From Monocercomonoides exilis PA203 (lineage: Eukaryota > Protista > Preaxostyla), in assembly GCA_001643675.2 (NCBI GenBank), contig LSRY02000069.1, forward strand, positions 62,001 through 126,000: DNA of 64,000 bases, read 5' to 3'. Under the pieces are notes generated by a model. It did no database searches, was not told the DNA's origin, and saw nothing but the letters and a program-made list of their open reading frames with translations. The position numbers and the translations under genes were made by a program. The number at the start of each line of letters is the position of its first letter. The first letter of the stretch is position 1. This document shows positions 54,271-62,350 of the stretch, piece by piece.

Positions 54271-55310
54271 CGGCCAATTCTCACCGTTTTCGAGCGATAT
54301 AAACTTTTTAACAATAACTTCTCCTTACAATGTCTAAAAGAGGAAAAAAAAAGATGAGCAAAAAGAAAAATAGAAAATAACATAGACAAAAAACGTGATT
54401 CGTCATTTGATTCAAAAAATGATAAATATCATTTTGAGTTTTTGATTTCAAGCCTTTTGATGTTGAAATTGCAGGTAATATAAAATCTTTTAAAAACATA
54501 TGTAATCAATTATTTTGTTCAAATTCTTGAATATAGTTTTTCATTCATGAGTATTATAACATCAAAATTTTCATGTTCATTAACTTTCAAAAAATCATAC
54601 AAGATATACGACTTTTAACCTTTTTGTTTTTTCAACTCATTGAAATGTTGAAATGTTAATAAACGTTCAAAAAATCAAAATGTCTATTCAAATGGATGAA
54701 ACAAAAAAGCAAATATTAATGGAAATAATTGTATCCCACAAATAACAACTAATAAATTGATTTTAAAATCAATAATGAATAGTTTGTTAAAAATTTCTGT
54801 GAAGTCGATTTTACAGTCAAAACAAGATATAATCACATCGGGTTTTACACAACTTGTTGTGACTATATCCGATTGTGATTTGACACGATGATGCTTAACA
54901 CAGAAAAAAATAAAAATTAACTTTTGAAACAATTAATTCTGGGTCAATTTTTTAATTCTTGGAAATTCTTCACAAAAACACATTTTTCAATAGAAATAAC
55001 AATTTTTTTGTTTTATTATGTTATTTCGTTAGAGAACTAATTAATATAACTCCTCTTTCTATTTGGGGATAGAGCTCCGTTTTATGGGCTCAGCCGATCA
55101 ATGTGACGTGAAATTTGTGGTGTTTGCTGATGTGATGAAAAAGTAAAAAAGAATAAAAAAGTTTGCGTCCAATAACAGGCTGTGCAAATTTGCACTGAGG
55201 AGTTATATCTTTCTTTTATAACGACAAAACACGAAGACCTTCAAAATGCAAGAAAAGGTTTTATTAACTGTAAGTTCCATGGGTGGGAAAAGCTTCGCTT
55301 TGTGGAGGGA

Positions 55311-55411
55311 AAAGAGGAGTTGTGTATTAATTAGTTCTCTAACGAATTAAAAAGCATTAGCTTCTTAATTCTCGAGAACTAATGAAAATACAACTCCTCT
55401 TTCTATTTGGG
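55311..55411. repeat. DIRS internal complementary region (ICR)
   Basis: 55311-55346 is nearly complementary to the terminus 55025-55058, and 55346-55411 is nearly complementary to 59953-60018. Together they spell the circle junction ...CTCTAACGAATTAAAAAGC... Confidence 0.9.
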
Positions 55412-55417
55412 ATATCA

Positions 55418-58400
55418 TTAATTGGGCATGTTTTGTGTCTCCTGTTCCATTAATATTGCGTAGGCTCTTGTAACCACTCTCTCTGTTCGTGTGCAAATAT
55501 TTCTTGATTTCTTGACAGTTGAATGGGAACATGATCGCTTCGAATCCTCTTCCTGATCTATACAAGTGTTTTCCTTATTGTGCAGTTTATCTTCAACTTT
55601 TTTGACTTCCTCATTTTCCTTATTGATATCCTTCTCCTCTCCAACGGTCTGCGATGATTGCGACTCTTCGATGTCCATGTCAATGCTCTGTTCTGTGAGA
55701 GAGGGAAGCTGTTGTGTTGGAATGGAACAATTTGCCTGTAAAGATAGTTGAGGGGAATTGAAAGTTTGTGGTTGCGCCAGCGATAATCCAATTGAATTTG
55801 AAGGTTGCAGGCTTTGAAAATACTGAGAGGAGGGCTGAAAATTAAACGTCTGAGGTTGTTGTTGATGCAGTTGCGAAGGATGTGGTTGAGGTGAAAGGAC
55901 CATATCATGTTGAACAGGAAACACGTTTATTGCAGATTGGATTGGAGCTTGGATGTTTGCAAAAGAAGATCCTTGAGTTATTTGTGCACTCCAAGGTTGT
56001 ATTTGAGACCCCGTTTGTGGGAATGGTTGGTGCTCTGTCAGAACCTGGGCCATCGCTTGAGCAGTGTTTGTTTTGAAGTAAGAATTAGTTGGTGTGTGAG
56101 CTGTGGGAGACAATCTGGCAAAGTGTGCTACCATAACCTCCGGAACTCCAGCGGCAAGGAGAGCAGACAAAGCTGCATGCTTTATAGTGTGAGGCCGAAA
56201 CGAGGGGTTGATTCCTGCCTGCTTCATTGCCTCCTTTGCGAGTTTACGAATACCATCCTTTGACATTCTTGATCCGGTTCTCGTGTTTATTATGAACGTA
56301 TCTCTTCCTGGATACAAAACTTTAATGTGGTTCCAAAGTTCCAATACCGCACGCACTGGACAAACATCTGACTGGATCTCCTTCAGTTTAGGGACTGTGA
56401 TGAACGATCTTGCGAGTCTTGTTTTCAATTGCACTGAAAGATGAATTGCATTCTCAGAGATTATCGAATCGTTCATTGAAATGCTCGCCAGTTCTGAAAA
56501 CCTGCATGCAGTGAATAACATACACAGAGTTATTGATTTCAATGTCAGAGAGTATACGCTCAAAGTCTCGTTGGGCCACAGAGTTCGGAGATAATTGAAA
56601 AGGACCTGTGGATCCCATATTTCCTCGTACGGAGCTCTTTTCTTTTCCTTTCTCATGATAGATCGAAAGAATGTCTTTATTATCGGTACTGTTCCTAAAT
56701 CGAAAGAGAAAGCACTTCTAGTGAATAGCGACACTGCGGACCTTGTTTGCTTTAAGCACTGAGGAGGAAAACCCTCATTATCTAAGCATATGAAAGTGTC
56801 CAAGCACTTCCTCACCCAAATCACAGGATCTGACGGTAACTCCCCCATATTCCCCTTGATCCAAGCGTTTGCGAAATGTGCGAATCCAAATGTGTATGTT
56901 GTCCATGTTGACGTGGCAACACTATTTTTAATGTGTATTATCATGCTGTCCGGAACATTTAGTTTTCGTAGGCCGTGCTCAAACCACTGTTCACCCGCCT
57001 TCTTGACTAGGGAAAGCTTATTGCCAGGTAACCTCCTGAAGGAAGCGCTGCTCCTCTCGCCTTCAAACCCTGCCCTGGTAGTAATATCATTCGTGAACAT
57101 CTCCATCTCATGAATCGTCTTTTCCACAGTTGAAGTGTCTGGCTCCAAATCTGATTCGTCCAATCCGGTATCAGAAGAATCATCTTCGCTCTCTCCTTCA
57201 ACGCTTTCCTCATCGTCTGAAGGATCAGTGGAATTGGCGGATGGGCAAGAACCACCTCGCCCTTCCACGGATAGCTCAGACCGTCCTGACATAATCTGCT
57301 GCCTGGCCCGCACCACCGTTGCAGCTTTCTGTTCTTTGCACTGGCAAACGCATCTAGAGTCGGTTTGATCCTGAGGTAGTTGAGTGCCATCTGAAGAGCC
57401 TGATTTTTGATTTCGTAATCTCCCGACTGCTCGAGTCTTGACAGGGCATCTGCCTCCACATTTCTTTTTCCTGCAATATGAACTGCTTTGACCTGGATTC
57501 CCTGACTCTCCACAAGTTTCCTGATCTCTTTCAATAGAGGTCGCAGATTCTTTCCTGCTCCCCATCTGTTTATGTTGTAAACTACAGATGTGTTGTCCGA
57601 GCATATCAACACCTTCCTTTCCGACAGTTTTGCGATATCCTGAGAAAACCTTGCTAGCGCAATCTTGACTGCAAGTAATTCCCTGAAGTTTGACGTTTGA
57701 TTTTGAGCAACTCTGTTCAAAGGGACGTGAAAAATCTTCTTGAGTTGTCCTGATATCTTTACACTTCCTCCGCATGCCCATGGCGAGGCATCTGTTGTGA
57801 TCGTCACCTGAGGGGAGCCAAAGGATTGAAGCGTTCTTTGTTTTCTCTTCCTGACTTCGCTTATCCAGAATGTCAATTCTGGAATGATTCCATAATGAAG
57901 TCGACATAGTCCGTTCCATCCATTGATGTTGACATTCTTCATTAGGCATTGATAAAGGTTTGTCATGTGTAATGATGCATCTGTGTGGACAAATCTGGCA
58001 GCGCTTATTTGTCCCACAATTGAAGCAAATTTTTTGACTGAGATTGGACGCCTCTTCATTGTGTTTATTAGTACCATGTAACACTTCTGAACAATGGAGG
58101 CAATTCTCTCTTCGTTCAGAGCCACTGTCGACTGAATCGAATCCCATTTCCATCCCAGAAAGTTGAATCTTTGTTTTGCCTGAAGTTCGCTTTTCTCCTT
58201 GTTGACCATCAGACCAAGTTGGGAGAACCAATCCATAACCTCCTTTGTTATTTGCTCCAGCTTCTGTTTGTCCTTGTGAAGAAAGAGGACATCGTCCAGA
58301 TAAGAGATGCAACGAACTTTCCATTTCATTCTCACCAGCTTTATTATTGAACGCATGATCTTCGTAAAGATTCTTGGGGCATCCTTCATTCCAAATGGAA

Positions 58401-58825
58401 GGCATTGAAACGCTATTGTTTCTTGATGAAATTTGAAAGCCAAAAACGGGATGAAATCTTCGCGAACAGGGATTAAGAAATATGCTTGAGAGAGATCCAA
58501 TGAGGTTGCAAAATCTCCCTTTTCCATCAACTTTTCCACAGTTCTGTGATCCTCCAGCTTGAACTTGATTGATTTCAGGGCTTTGTTCAGAGGTCTGCAG
58601 TCCAATATTTGTCTCCATTTCCAGTTCTTCTTCTTTACGAAAAACAGTTTGCTCAGGCTTTTTGCATCTTCGAACTTGATCCTCTTCAATATTCCACAAT
58701 CCAGTGCTTCCGTTATCCACTTCTCGCACTCCCTCTCCTGCTCCTGGGATCCAATAAAACCATGTCCTGCTTTGACTTCCTTTTTCAGCTTGTCTCGTGC
58801 CTCTCTGCTTCTCCAAACAGGACAA
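55418..58825 (-). CDS. DIRS tyrosine recombinase ORF; its N-terminal 600 codons overlap pol, and the frame is open from 59101
   Basis: C-terminal half has a phage-integrase-type fold: TWTTY, LFTACRFSEL (Arg), LKT (Lys), VCPVRAV, PHTIKHA, TNSYFK (Tyr); Q/P/S-rich tail. Confidence 0.9.
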   Translation of the reverse strand: MSCLEKQRGTRQAEKGSQSRTWFYWIPGAGEGVREVDNGSTGLWNIEEDQVRRCKKPEQTVFRKEEELEMETNIGLQTSEQSPEINQVQAGGSQNCGKVDGKGRFCNLIGSLSSIFLNPCSRRFHPVFGFQISSRNNSVSMPSIWNEGCPKNLYEDHAFNNKAGENEMESSLHLLSGRCPLSSQGQTEAGANNKGGYGLVLPTWSDGQQGEKRTSGKTKIQLSGMEMGFDSVDSGSERRENCLHCSEVLHGTNKHNEEASNLSQKICFNCGTNKRCQICPHRCIITHDKPLSMPNEECQHQWMERTMSTSLWNHSRIDILDKRSQEEKTKNASILWLPSGDDHNRCLAMGMRRKCKDIRTTQEDFSRPFEQSCSKSNVKLQGITCSQDCASKVFSGYRKTVGKEGVDMLGQHICSLQHKQMGSRKESATSIERDQETCGESGNPGQSSSYCRKKKCGGRCPVKTRAVGRLRNQKSGSSDGTQLPQDQTDSRCVCQCKEQKAATVVRARQQIMSGRSELSVEGRGGSCPSANSTDPSDDEESVEGESEDDSSDTGLDESDLEPDTSTVEKTIHEMEMFTNDITTRAGFEGERSSASFRRLPGNKLSLVKKAGEQWFEHGLRKLNVPDSMIIHIKNSVATSTWTTYTFGFAHFANAWIKGNMGELPSDPVIWVRKCLDTFICLDNEGFPPQCLKQTRSAVSLFTRSAFSFDLGTVPIIKTFFRSIMRKEKKRAPYEEIWDPQVLFNYLRTLWPNETLSVYSLTLKSITLCMLFTACRFSELASISMNDSIISENAIHLSVQLKTRLARSFITVPKLKEIQSDVCPVRAVLELWNHIKVLYPGRDTFIINTRTGSRMSKDGIRKLAKEAMKQAGINPSFRPHTIKHAALSALLAAGVPEVMVAHFARLSPTAHTPTNSYFKTNTAQAMAQVLTEHQPFPQTGSQIQPWSAQITQGSSFANIQAPIQSAINVFPVQHDMVLSPQPHPSQLHQQQPQTFNFQPSSQYFQSLQPSNSIGLSLAQPQTFNSPQLSLQANCSIPTQQLPSLTEQSIDMDIEESQSSQTVGEEKDINKENEEVKKVEDKLHNKENTCIDQEEDSKRSCSHSTVKKSRNICTRTERVVTRAYAILMEQETQNMPN

Positions 58826-58932
58826 GCTCCCTTCTCTATAATTCTCCTGGTCCCTATTTCGGACCAGTTCTTGAGAAAGAGTCTTGTTCTTCCTCCAACT
58901 TTCTTCGAGGATCCCATTGGTTGGAGCTCCAA
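57007..58932 (-). CDS. DIRS Pol: reverse transcriptase, RNase H and DNA adenine methyltransferase-like domain; frame open from 59022
   Basis: RQILDCRPLN, SLDLSQAY, LPFGMKDAPRIFTK, YLDD; RNase H TTDAS, RELLAV, SDN, NVEADALSR; MT-like LDAFAS...W...LAHPPIPLI. Confidence 0.95.
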   Translation of the reverse strand: MELQPMGSSKKVGGRTRLFLKNWSEIGTRRIIEKGACPVWRSREARDKLKKEVKAGHGFIGSQEQERECEKWITEALDCGILKRIKFEDAKSLSKLFFVKKKNWKWRQILDCRPLNKALKSIKFKLEDHRTVEKLMEKGDFATSLDLSQAYFLIPVREDFIPFLAFKFHQETIAFQCLPFGMKDAPRIFTKIMRSIIKLVRMKWKVRCISYLDDVLFLHKDKQKLEQITKEVMDWFSQLGLMVNKEKSELQAKQRFNFLGWKWDSIQSTVALNEERIASIVQKCYMVLINTMKRRPISVKKFASIVGQISAARFVHTDASLHMTNLYQCLMKNVNINGWNGLCRLHYGIIPELTFWISEVRKRKQRTLQSFGSPQVTITTDASPWACGGSVKISGQLKKIFHVPLNRVAQNQTSNFRELLAVKIALARFSQDIAKLSERKVLICSDNTSVVYNINRWGAGKNLRPLLKEIRKLVESQGIQVKAVHIAGKRNVEADALSRLEQSGDYEIKNQALQMALNYLRIKPTLDAFASAKNRKLQRWCGPGSRLCQDGLSYPWKGEVVLAHPPIPLILQTMRKALKERAKMILLIPDWTNQIWSQTLQLWKRRFMRWRCSRMILLPGQGLKARGAALPSGGYLAISFP

Positions 58933-59906
58933 GTTCTGCTGGTTCTCTGGGAGCTTCTTCTGCTGTTTGAACTGAATTTTCTTCTTGTAAATGGGATCCT
59001 TCTTGTCCGAAAAAACTGGTTTTTAAGAGAGAATGTATTTGTGAACGGTCTGATCCATCCCTGCGATCGAGGAAGCAATTTTTGTTTCGGCTCAGCGATC
59101 TTCAACGTTTCAAGTTGCCTCTTGGAAAGCAATTGGTCTCCATCTTCTTCTTTTAATGTTCTTGCGGCTCTGAACCCATAAACTGCTTGGATCCTTTGTG
59201 TTCTCGCTTCCTGGAGTGCTTTAACCATCATAAAGAAAGAATCAGCCAAAACTGCACTTGGGTCCAATCCCTTATCTACCATATCTTTTCCAATTATAAG
59301 CGCTTTTATTGCCAATATCAATTTTTCTTCGATTTTGAATCCATTTTGTTCTAGAGCGTCGTAGCACCAATTTGATGTTCTTTGAATTGGGTGGATAGCC
59401 TCTGGAATGAACGGAGGTGCTGAGAAATTCGAGTAAATTGTGGAATTTGAGCCTGCTTGTTCAGGAAAATGCATTTCGAATATTGAATCCTTTGTTTTAT
59501 CTCCGAAAAGCGAGAAACAAATGCATTTGAAGTTCGGTTGATAATTGTCTTTCTCCATCAGGTGTTCTTGCGAAGTGTCTATCGTTTGAAGAATATTCTG
59601 CTGCTGCGTCGTTTGTGGAGAATGGATTGGGTTTTGCTCAAGTGTTGTTGGATTTGGAAATATTTGGGGATGAGAAGAGCTTGAAGATTGTTGGAAAGGT
59701 GGATGGAGCAAGTTTGTAACATTGTGATCTTCTCGGCTTGATGCGTTTTCAAGGCTCATTGCAATATTTTGTGTTGGAATAGTCGCGGCTGATGAGGAAA
59801 ATGTGCTGGAGGTGGATTGCGTAAATCCCACACTGCTCGGAGGTCCGCTGATATCCTGAGATAAGGAATTCAGACTCGACTCGAGTCCAGGCTGAAGTAC
59901 GCTCAT
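58854..59906 (-). CDS. DIRS Gag-like ORF1
   Basis: 350 aa ATG-initiated ORF starting 11 nt inside the 5' ITR and lying upstream of pol; helical core and Arg/Ser-rich basic C-terminus. Confidence 0.8.
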   Translation of the reverse strand: MSVLQPGLESSLNSLSQDISGPPSSVGFTQSTSSTFSSSAATIPTQNIAMSLENASSREDHNVTNLLHPPFQQSSSSSHPQIFPNPTTLEQNPIHSPQTTQQQNILQTIDTSQEHLMEKDNYQPNFKCICFSLFGDKTKDSIFEMHFPEQAGSNSTIYSNFSAPPFIPEAIHPIQRTSNWCYDALEQNGFKIEEKLILAIKALIIGKDMVDKGLDPSAVLADSFFMMVKALQEARTQRIQAVYGFRAARTLKEEDGDQLLSKRQLETLKIAEPKQKLLPRSQGWIRPFTNTFSLKNQFFRTRRIPFTRRKFSSNSRRSSQRTSRTWSSNQWDPRRKLEEEQDSFSRTGPK

Positions 59907-61099
59907 TGTTTATAATTATTGATCGGCTGAGCCCATAAAACGGAGCTCTATCCCCAAATAGAAAGAGGAGTTGTATTTTCATTCGTTCTCGAGAATTAAG
60001 AAGCTAATGCTTTTTAATCAGACTTATTAAAACTTAATTTTGAAAAGCGAAAAATTGAGATCTTTGATCAAAAAATCGATTTTTCAATGAAAAAATCACC
60101 CATAATAATAAAAAATGCGATTATATATTTTCAGCCCTGTGATTATATGAGATGGAAAATGAATGAAAAATAGGTTAAAAATGACGGAACATTGAAAAAT
60201 GTGACTATAAACGAATGTGATTATATCCGACGTGATTATATCCGGTTTTAACAGTATTAAAACAATATATGGGCGATTCTTTTTGATATCCTAAAAAATT
60301 CCGACGTTTGATCATAAAAAATTTTCATTAAGGGTGGGGTTGATAAGAAATTATTTTTGTTTAATAATACAAAAATATACGTTAATATATTGTTTATATA
60401 ATTTATTTGTTGATTTTAATTTGTTTCCAATTGTTTTTATTTCATATTTTGAAAAAAAATATAAAAAATCATACAAAAAAATCGATAATTCAATAAACAC
60501 AACAAAACAAAAGTTCACTGGTTCAAAAAGCATGATAACTATAATCACAATACGTAATCAATCAATGTCTAAAGCAAAAAACTGTTAAATAAAGTTGTTG
60601 CAAAGAAATTTTTATATAAATATTGAAGATCTTAAAATATTCGTTGAAATTTAACAATTCACATTAACATTAACGCAAAAATATAGCAGTATAACAAGAT
60701 ATTTATCAGATACACAACAATTTGTAGTTGACATTTGCTTGGAAATAAATAATACTTTTAAGAAGTTATTTTAATAAATTGATCAAAGTTTTTTAAAAAA
60801 TTTACAAAGAAATAATGAATAAATGAAAATAAATACGAGAATTTCTGCTTTTTTCACTTAAAAAGCTCGTAACTTTTATGATCTCATCTTTTTTATCATC
60901 TGTTTTTCTTTTTAGCATTGCCTAATTTGCTTGGTGAACATTCCATTCAATTATTTTTCTGAATATATTTCTCTGTGCTATTTCTTCCTCTTCGAAAATC
61001 ACTTTTAAAGCTGGACAGATATGTGAATAATTTTTTTTGCATTTTTCAACAGCCCTGCATGGTTCAGTTTCAACCTTGATTTGAGGATGCAAAAATGAC

Positions 61100-62350
61100 T
61101 TCAGAAAGTGGAGATGATGGTTTTCGAGCTGATAACAATAAGCTCTTTATATACTGTGCTGTGCGAGTTCGAAATCCTGGGCGAAGTTGCGAGCATAATG
61201 TTTTCACAGATCAAGTGCACTGCGAGCAGCAGCGTGGTGGAGTGCAGGGGGTGTATGATTGGAGGTAAGGAGAAGGGGAGCGGAGACGGGGGATGTGTAA
61301 AGATCGCAGCGAGGCCGGAGGCGGCGAGGCCAGGCATAGACCCATGGATTGAGCAGCTGGGTGTTCTTGGGGGAGGCAGACGCTATTAGACAGTTGACCC
61401 TCTAGCGCGTGGTGTTTGCCATCGATGAGCTCAGCGGATTCGTGCTGGCTGCATCTGTTCCCACCTCCCCCTCTCATTTTCAACCTCCACTTCGCTAACC
61501 ACTCCTCCCACCAACCCCAACCTCGATGTCGACCTCCTCCCCTTCATCACATCCTACCGCGCCCACCAGATATTCGTCGACCAGGACACCTGCTCCTCTG
61601 CCCGCCAGTGCGGCTCCCTGCCTGCTCCCTGCGAATTCATCTCCACAACTGTGTTATACATCTGCCGCTCAATAGAAAACTCCCTCTGGATCTGCCCACT
61701 CTTCCCTCTTCTCCCTCCTCGACGGATAACTAGCTGTGTCCTCCTTCCTCTTTTCAGCGGCTGACCAGCTCGTACGCCTCAACTCCACACTCCTTTGTTC
61801 TTGCCTAGGAACCCTTCGCCTCTTCAACATATCTGTCCATTCCCTCCCCCCTCACCTGCCCTGCTCATCATGCTCTCCCCGCTTCCTCCCTCTTCCTCTC
61901 TCACGACAACCTTTCCGCCCTCAGTGCGCCTCGCCTGTGCTCCTATTCGACGATGGCTCCAGCTCCTCCCTCGAGCATCTCATCACCACGGATCTCCTTA
62001 TCGGAGGTTTCAGGGTTGTTATTCTCATCTCATCGTGTTTTATCAGTCAATAAGCTTCTTCAGCATGATTCATTTCGTCTTCACTGCCATCTCGCTCGAC
62101 AAACTCTGTTGGAGTGTGCATGCCGACAACTTCCAGCACACCAGCAATATCCTTTCCATTTGTATATTTTCTTTCACCACCAGCTGCAACCTCATCTGCT
62201 CCAACTCCAGTGCACTCAATATCGCCTCGTTCAAATGAGAAGGCGGAGTCATCCTTCCAGGCACCTCTTAGTGACTCCTCAACTGTTGATTCACTCGGCG
62301 CTGCATCAACAATCAACTCTCTCCTCAGCATTTCGTATCGATGCTTTCAG
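61100..62350. pseudogene. GC-rich pseudogene fragments; 61108-61389 resembles the surface-protein family of the ORF at 3-6266
   Basis: CRGCMIGGKEKGSGDGGCVKI resembles the GxGGGxY-type motifs of the first ORF. The remainder is stop-riddled coding-like sequence on the minus strand. Confidence 0.35.

Follow-up and report, generated by a model that had tools for sequence, protein, structure and literature searches.

The window analysed here, a stretch of 64,000 nt taken as a whole, carries on its minus strand, at 60018-55021, an intact DIRS1-like retrotransposon that is about 5.0 kb long, and self-blastn finds one copy of it within these 64 kb. Its termini, internal complementary region (ICR) and open reading frames are as follows.

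59918 to 60018, minus strand: left inverted terminal repeat, starting near ATT (self-blastn).
55021 to 55102, minus strand: right inverted terminal repeat and right extension (self-blastn and sequence).
55311 to 55414, minus strand: ICR, left and right parts (self-blastn and sequence).
58854 to 59906, minus strand: gag ORF, frame 0, 350 aa, from the ATG at 59906 to a TAG, with an Arg/Ser-rich C-terminus.
57007 to 59022, minus strand: pol ORF, -1 frame, 671 codons, with reverse transcriptase (YLDD at 58302; PF00078, E 9.8e-28), RNase H (PF13456, E 1.5e-4) and a weak methyltransferase match.
55418 to 59101, minus strand: YR (tyrosine recombinase) ORF, +1 frame, 1227 codons, overlapping all of pol (PF00589, E 8.6e-12, residues 851-994).

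The inverted terminal repeats (59918-59977 versus 55043-55102) are 98% identical over 60 nt, and the ICR is complementary to both termini, with 55414-55346 matching the left end at 97% and 55350-55311 the right end at 90%. A Pfam search of the element ORFs recovered reverse transcriptase, RNase H and tyrosine recombinase, and no integrase (rve) or protease family at E 0.1. A methyltransferase after RNase H is indicated by a weak PF05869 match (E 0.094, 12.8 bits versus a cut-off of 28.1), and DAFAS and HPP motifs, which we take to be those of a methyltransferase, are present. The nearest relatives of the element are gene models of Monocercomonoides exilis, 94-95% identical for gag and the YR frame, which agrees with the oxymonad origin supposed in a sequence-only reading; gag, which has no Pfam match, is 95% identical to the M. 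exilis model P0176. Beyond the catalytic domain, the YR ORF continues for about 200 codons (55900-55418, minus strand) that are rich in Gln, Pro and Ser and then acidic, likewise without a Pfam match. The recombinase reads HTIKH at 56191-56177 (minus strand), versus HSTR in the distant DIRS recombinases P0116 and P0133, and its Lys presumably stands where the second catalytic Arg is expected. Very AT-rich sequence flanks the element for about 1 kb on each side (55050-54000 and 60020-61100), both flanks contain repeated words resembling GGATATA(A/G)TCAC (60240-60120 and 54870-54830), and several contigs break at about 60043-60094, which hints that the target sequence is itself repeated or that a second family of repeats is present. 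In its gag, its pol with reverse transcriptase, RNase H and a possible methyltransferase, its YR, its inverted terminal repeats and its ICR, the element resembles DIRS1-like elements such as Dictyostelium DIRS-1 (PMC3266345). It is of a known kind; what is new is the proposed bidirectional switch at the junction of its three frames, where the following features lie.

59023 to 59025, minus strand: TAA behind which the pol (-1) frame opens, three codons ahead of the U tract (sequence).
59009 to 59016, minus strand: candidate shift site G_UUU_UUU_C, with gag codons TTT TTT at 59015-59010 and CGG at 59009-59007 (sequence).
58908 to 59000, minus strand: predicted stimulatory stem, with arms 59000-58990 and 58918-58908 and an inner 6-bp stem, 58955-58950 with 58930-58925 (folding).
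59016 to 59106, minus strand: 91-nt GT..AG stretch, 44% GC, whose removal joins gag to the YR frame, as implied by model P0022.

A sequence-only reading of this DNA had placed pol in the -1 and YR in the +1 frame relative to gag, with gag reading CTT AAA AAC CAG TTT TTT CGG at the junction and all three frames open together for about 165 nt. The ORF coordinates bear out both frame assignments, the gag codons are indeed read at 59027-59007 on the minus strand, and gag, pol and YR are all open from 59022 to 58857 (166 nt), within a stop-free gag frame that spans 59909-58854. That the pol frame opens just before the tract is true of this element, through its TAA, but proved to be family-specific: among the families that we label A (this element), B, C and E, the position of the TAA is not kept in B and E, and in P0002 and P0045 the open pol frame reaches further upstream. 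The first pol ATG lies at 58917, and the 33 open pol codons that precede it are weak evidence when taken alone (P 0.09). Each of the four families has a pol-frame ATG between the tract and a conserved GGRT motif, so that pol could start at an ATG of its own. The first ATG of the YR frame lies at 58618. Gag ends in AAA TAG in this element, and its last codon is Lys here and Gln in families B and E.

The sense strand of the 4.5-kb coding region contains no T6 run other than that of the tract. Over the 82 gag codons from 59099 to the gag stop, four re-pair synonymously after a +1 slip, all of them within CTT AAA AAC CAG TTT TTT, and among the five -1 sites that keep the A-site residue, in the same gag stretch, the tract is the only one with a homopolymer heptamer. 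An in-phase UUU_CGN, reportedly the amalgavirus +1 motif, is combined with an open +1 frame in this element and in family B; family E, with UUU_CA, lacks the CGN codon that PA-X-like sites favour. The CGG codon is not very rare in the host (22 of 226 Arg codons in the seven host ORFs of the window). Upstream of the tract, CUU_AAA_AAC at 59027-59019 (minus strand) adds further slip-compatible codons (U_AAA_AAC for -1; CUU and AAA for +1), and was not found in the other families. As a -1 heptamer, G_UUU_UUU is not a strict X_XXY_YYZ, XXX being GUU; G_UU is listed among the exceptions, with equine arteritis virus (PMC5009743). The exceptions given in the available part of the same review do not include A_UUU_UUU, the heptamer of families C and E.

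The downstream stem of 11 perfect base pairs after a 9-nt spacer, described in the sequence-only reading together with an inner stem and a buried pol ATG, is predicted as claimed: the arms are full complements with a mean pair probability of 0.93, the enclosed 6-bp stem has a pair probability of 0.91, and the ATG at 58917 sits in the 3' arm. It is the only perfect 11-bp stem with a span of at most 100 nt in the 4.5-kb coding region. Shuffling produced such a stem anywhere in the coding region in 5.7% of 300 cases, and one starting 4-9 nt past the tract in 0 of 3000 shuffles of the 120 nt that follow it. Folding of the whole region gave an energy only modestly better than that of shuffled sequences (z -2.17; 7 of 200 as good). 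In a longer fold, the tract (59016-59008) pairs with 58907-58899, just past the 3' arm, a predicted pairing by which the helix would also cover the slip site when the RNA is not being translated.

Whether the stem is conserved received a divided answer from the reconstructed relatives, with recurrence at -1 spacing in family E but none in family B. In family E, two arms pair as 9 bp, a bulge and 5 bp (about 14 bp), starting 6 nt after the tract, and 13 of the 14 pairs are fixed by the gag and pol frames together (P0177 with P0045), pairing not having been assumed; P0179 of the same family has one mismatch in the stem and diverges beyond it. The sequence of the family E stem is unrelated to that of the stem here, while its position and long loop are alike. 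The family B reconstruction gave no stem at 5-9 nt spacing, with helices at +38 and +97 only (z -0.5), and the poorly determined reconstruction of family C gave a 6-bp hairpin at +10 (z 0.0). Both the presence in E and the absence in B are provisional, since the reconstructions combine different, decayed copies.

Over the 671 codons of pol the YR frame contains no stop, whereas three randomisation schemes of 5000 each average 34-41 stops, with minima of 17-24; these nulls, like the others for this frame, preserve the pol protein but take no account of the gag constraint. Between the tract and the first YR ATG lie 133 codons with 0 stops where 8.2 are expected (0 of 20000 randomisations), and the 79 codons from the gag stop to that ATG are stop-free as well (P 0.002). 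Between the tract and the gag stop, 54 codons have no YR-frame stop versus 3.4 expected, with the gag constraint again left out of the null (P 0.010), and in P0003 and P0038 the YR frame is also open for about 40 codons in this interval. The 133 stop-free codons ahead of the first ATG suggest that the YR frame is entered near the tract, and ribosomes likely enter it between 59101 and the tract region by a route other than an ATG.

Conservation was read from protein gene models, and the DNA of families B, C and E was deduced from these, often from different and decayed copies. There are 23 proteins labelled as M. exilis, 11 of which start after, end before or skip the tract; all 12 that cover the junction show the tract, in one frame or another, in a sample biased towards open frames because gene models exist only where a frame is open. 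Read in this way, U6C stands in gag phase at the same place in four families, which answers, through protein models, the earlier call to look for conservation among relatives. In family A, P0176 reads NQFFR in gag and P0022 reads FFGQ. In family B, gag reads RRRFFRG (P0178, P0180), pol KAVFSGG (P0002) and YR CFFGG or GFFW (P0003, P0182), and together these frames force CGG TTT TTT CGG; the family B DNA was first deduced from two of the frames, and the gag models found later matched the predicted third. In family E, HRFFQA in gag (P0177, P0179) and QIFSC in pol (P0045) force AGA TTT TTT CA, and in family C, RRRFFSSS runs from gag into pol (P0081) with DFFGF in the YR frame (P0038). The two-frame compatibility is 51 of 70 codons in family B (control mean 18%), 32 of 34 and 29 of 34 in family E (control 12%) and 31 of 38 in family C (control 18%), the controls of 12-18% being wrong offsets. 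P0081 joins gag directly to pol as FF-S, which is the predicted -1 junction. A query with the gag/YR junction of P0022 returned P0022 alone. A further model, P0043, on a 6.4-kb metagenome contig, has 1012 aa and is gag-like, with GKFFRSG followed by pol in the same frame; it is either a Gag-Pol fused in frame, with the FFR motif retained, or a copy altered by mutation.

The gag cores are 34-41% identical between families with FF aligned at the same place, and apart from FF the junction flanks gave no alignment between families. Six T followed by C, without synonymous change, between such diverged gags and unalignable flanks, point to a signal at the nucleotide level. Judged from these sequences, the DIRS elements of oxymonads have a conserved signal of the recoding type where their three frames meet. 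The proposal that one site, G_UUU_UUU overlapping UUU_CGG, serves both shifts is partly supported, the core of the site being kept but not its edges: the tract is preceded by G, G, A and A in the four families, and CGG follows in A, B and probably C but is replaced by CA in family E, so that the conserved unit is UUU_UUU_C and not G_UUU_UUU_CGG.

How could one message serve three frames? We propose that the stem, 6-9 nt ahead, would pause ribosomes that hold two tRNA-Phe on UUU_UUU. A tandem -1 slip with re-pairing on XUU_UUU would yield a Gag-Pol of 966 aa with the junction NQFF-SDK, a +1 slip with re-pairing on UUU/UUC would yield a Gag-YR of 1495 aa with the junction NQFF-GQE, and the majority of ribosomes would remain in frame and make the Gag of 350 aa, so that a single mRNA would provide Gag, Gag-Pol and Gag-YR. 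In Gag-YR, the first 820 or so residues from the YR frame would be a linker, open only to reach the recombinase. The invariant C after the tract is what +1 re-pairing on UUU/UUC would call for. We consider a -1 slip at the tract into Gag-Pol probable, and a +1 slip at the tract into Gag-YR is also favoured, if with less confidence. That both slips occur at UUU_UUU_C, giving three proteins from one message, seems to us a nearly balanced question. The fullest version is put forward tentatively: one site and one stem may direct opposite shifts that deliver both enzymes as Gag fusions, the 800-codon frame may be held open for the +1 ribosomes, the pol/YR overlap of DIRS elements may be the footprint of this arrangement, and UUU_C sites may be of wider use in the group. 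Entry into YR by a -2 shift was rejected, as it would set the P-site tRNA-Phe on AGU.

The main rival keeps only the -1 shift: tract and stem would drive Gag-Pol, and YR would be reached separately, by splicing across 59106-59016, by a +1 shift on the AAA_UAG that ends gag or from a shorter RNA. Stem and spacing do have the standard -1 layout, CGN is not kept in family E, and the AAA TAG at the end of gag resembles the Euplotes +1 motif. A shift at the gag stop, however, leaves the open YR frame between tract and stop unexplained, and the last gag codon, Lys here, is Gln in families B and E. Splicing is suggested by three gene models with GT..AG introns at or close to the tract, which connect gag with the YR frame in P0022 and P0038 and with pol in P0029. 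In this family an AG does precede the tract, so that a splice at this AG into the YR frame is a live rival here, and another AG lies 7-14 nt after the tract. Yet family B has CGG, not AG, before the tract, the donors and acceptors differ between models of different copies, and the would-be introns have 42-44% GC, with 44% in the 91-nt stretch versus 25% in host introns (PMC6759080). Spliced DIRS-1 RNA can be retrotransposed (PMC7192593), but no DNA contig joins across the 91 nt in any of four runs, all from one sample and assembled into contigs, which drop rare variants. For these reasons we read the spliced models as stitching by the gene predictor. Host intron ends were read by eye in seven flanks, and window-wide counts of GT hexamers gave no usable splice consensus. 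Taken together, a -1 shift with a separate entry into YR is possible but unlikely.

The converse reading, in which the tract is a +1 site for Gag-YR only and pol starts at its own ATG at 58917 by reinitiation, internal entry or a spliced RNA, with the stem gating the ATG or stimulating the +1 shift, appears distinctly unlikely to us. The invariant C and the variable first base suit +1 better than -1, a pol ATG precedes GGRT in four families and is buried by the stem here, and the open pol frame ahead of the ATG carries little weight. But the distance from ATG to GGRT differs in the four families, in all of them the pol frame has no stop between the tract and the reverse transcriptase, and both UUU codons are kept, which a tandem -1 slip needs and a single P-site +1 slip does not; reinitiation would moreover have to run backwards by 60 nt, as the ATG lies upstream of the gag stop. 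Still less probable is a junction free of frameshifting, with alternatively spliced or subgenomic RNAs as the source of pol and YR and with the U run as a splice pyrimidine tract or the result of Phe-Phe selection in Gag. The host is rich in introns (31,693; PMC6759080), P0022, P0029 and P0038 are spliced near the tract, and an AG lies 7-14 nt beyond it; against this stand the tract of exactly six T plus C in four families, which nowhere shows a synonymous TTC, the unconserved acceptor position, the GC-rich would-be introns, the lack of intron-less joins in the DNA contigs, and a family E stem at frameshift spacing. Finally, RNA polymerase II might slip on T6, and mRNAs one base longer or shorter would then open all frames, as in the paramyxovirus P gene. 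A single homopolymer run would indeed give both other frames, and P0081 may come from a copy in which the tract has changed in length, but six T are short for Pol II slippage. Three-frame editing is known in parainfluenza virus (PMC5009743). Polymerase slippage would, however, need neither a codon phase nor a 3' RNA stem set at the distance of a ribosome, copying of the slipped RNAs would give broken elements, and no tract indel occurs in the DNA contigs, which makes it a very improbable source of the three frames.

The reading that we prefer, a bidirectional ribosomal switch, has partial parallels in known systems. In the nsp2 gene of arteriviruses (PRRSV and simarteriviruses), a single U-rich site opens the way into both alternative frames, and one RNA yields three products (PMC6675879); there, the shifts are -2 and -1, nsp1beta and PCBP act on a C-rich motif, and the products are accessory nsp2 variants (PMC6675879), whereas the DIRS element would use an RNA stem and a predicted -1/+1 pair to make two long essential enzymes. 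Features of the arterivirus type are lacking at the tract, where a -2 shift would misplace the P-site tRNA-Phe and the downstream sequence is purine-rich with a stem instead of a C-rich motif. The -1 half resembles Gag-Pol shifting in retroviruses and LTR elements in its in-phase heptamer, 9-nt spacer (6 nt in family E), stable stem and pol in the -1 frame (PMC5009743), a review that also describes 5-9 nt spacers and G_UU heptamers; it differs in that XXX is GUU or AUU, the stem closes a loop of 55-70 nt and a third frame is open. For the +1 half, influenza PA-X provides a UUU_C site that is about 1% efficient (PMC3498833). Both this element and family B share with it UUU_C with a CGN codon in the A site, whereas its UCC_UUU_CGU (PMC3498833) has UCC in the E site where the tract has UUU, family E has UUU_CA, and a 3' stem is present here.

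A long pol/YR overlap occurs in half of 28 annotated DIRS elements (Piednoel et al, 2011; PMC3266345), and Dictyostelium DIRS-1 is reported to have one 4.5-kb mRNA with three overlapping ORFs (PMC3950715). The literature searched, in the parts available, offered no explanation of how the second and third ORFs are translated from one mRNA, and reports the pol/YR overlap without a mechanism. No frameshift signal or translation route for pol or YR of DIRS elements was found in what was accessible of PMC3266345, PMC7192593, PMC5633606, PMC6681497, PMC3783388, PMC8547959, PMC3950715 and PMC9210276, nor any mention of DIRS in the accessible part of a frameshifting review (PMC5009743). The remark in the sequence-only reading that it knew of no such description for DIRS elements thus agrees with the literature searched, as far as its text was available, although older work by Goodwin, Poulter and Butler may raise the idea. 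Compared with the DIRS1-like literature, so far as accessible, a conserved site is here located at the three-frame junction, and the exact site, the stem and the predicted junction peptides can now be given for it. If both shifts are real, the tract would act as a natural switch in both directions (-1/+1) and determine how much capsid, reverse transcriptase and recombinase are made relative to one another, of relevance to recoding and to transposon biology, and the recombinase would be made as a Gag fusion that current annotations miss or mis-splice.

At the DNA level, the main contigs from the four runs differ from the window at four places in 58840-59200, none of them in the tract or stem. 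A 90%-identical contig has lost the CGG and has a pol-frame stop at 59004 and a gag stop at 59135; with stops in both gag and pol it was taken for a dead copy and rejected as a test of conservation. DNA of the relatives was not found in viral contigs, bacterial genomes or a first metagenome scan; a second metagenome scan gave three distant DIRS loci (L001, L002 and L003), matching the query at 27-30%. The three-way layout is absent from all three, and L003 is decayed and lacks a TTT_CGG-type motif, while the other two have TTT_CGG in gag phase near the gag end, with unremarkable folds past it. L001 has both TTT CGG and U_UUA_AAC in gag phase (the latter at 128-134), pol in the -1 frame and a short YR ORF, and at 66-134 its pol frame opens directly past a TAA at AAT TTT CGG, with no ATG before the conserved N-terminal motif. 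On this layout, L001 likely uses a -1 frameshift and starts its short YR ORF at an ATG. A GC-rich stem after its U_UUA_AAC was dropped as a candidate, being no better than shuffles (z +1.67). In L002, at 1807-1872, gag reads CCC TTT CGG with the start of pol in the +1 frame, although an indel near 2095 clouds the frames, and its gag ends in TGA CTA, which we take to be a readthrough-like context.
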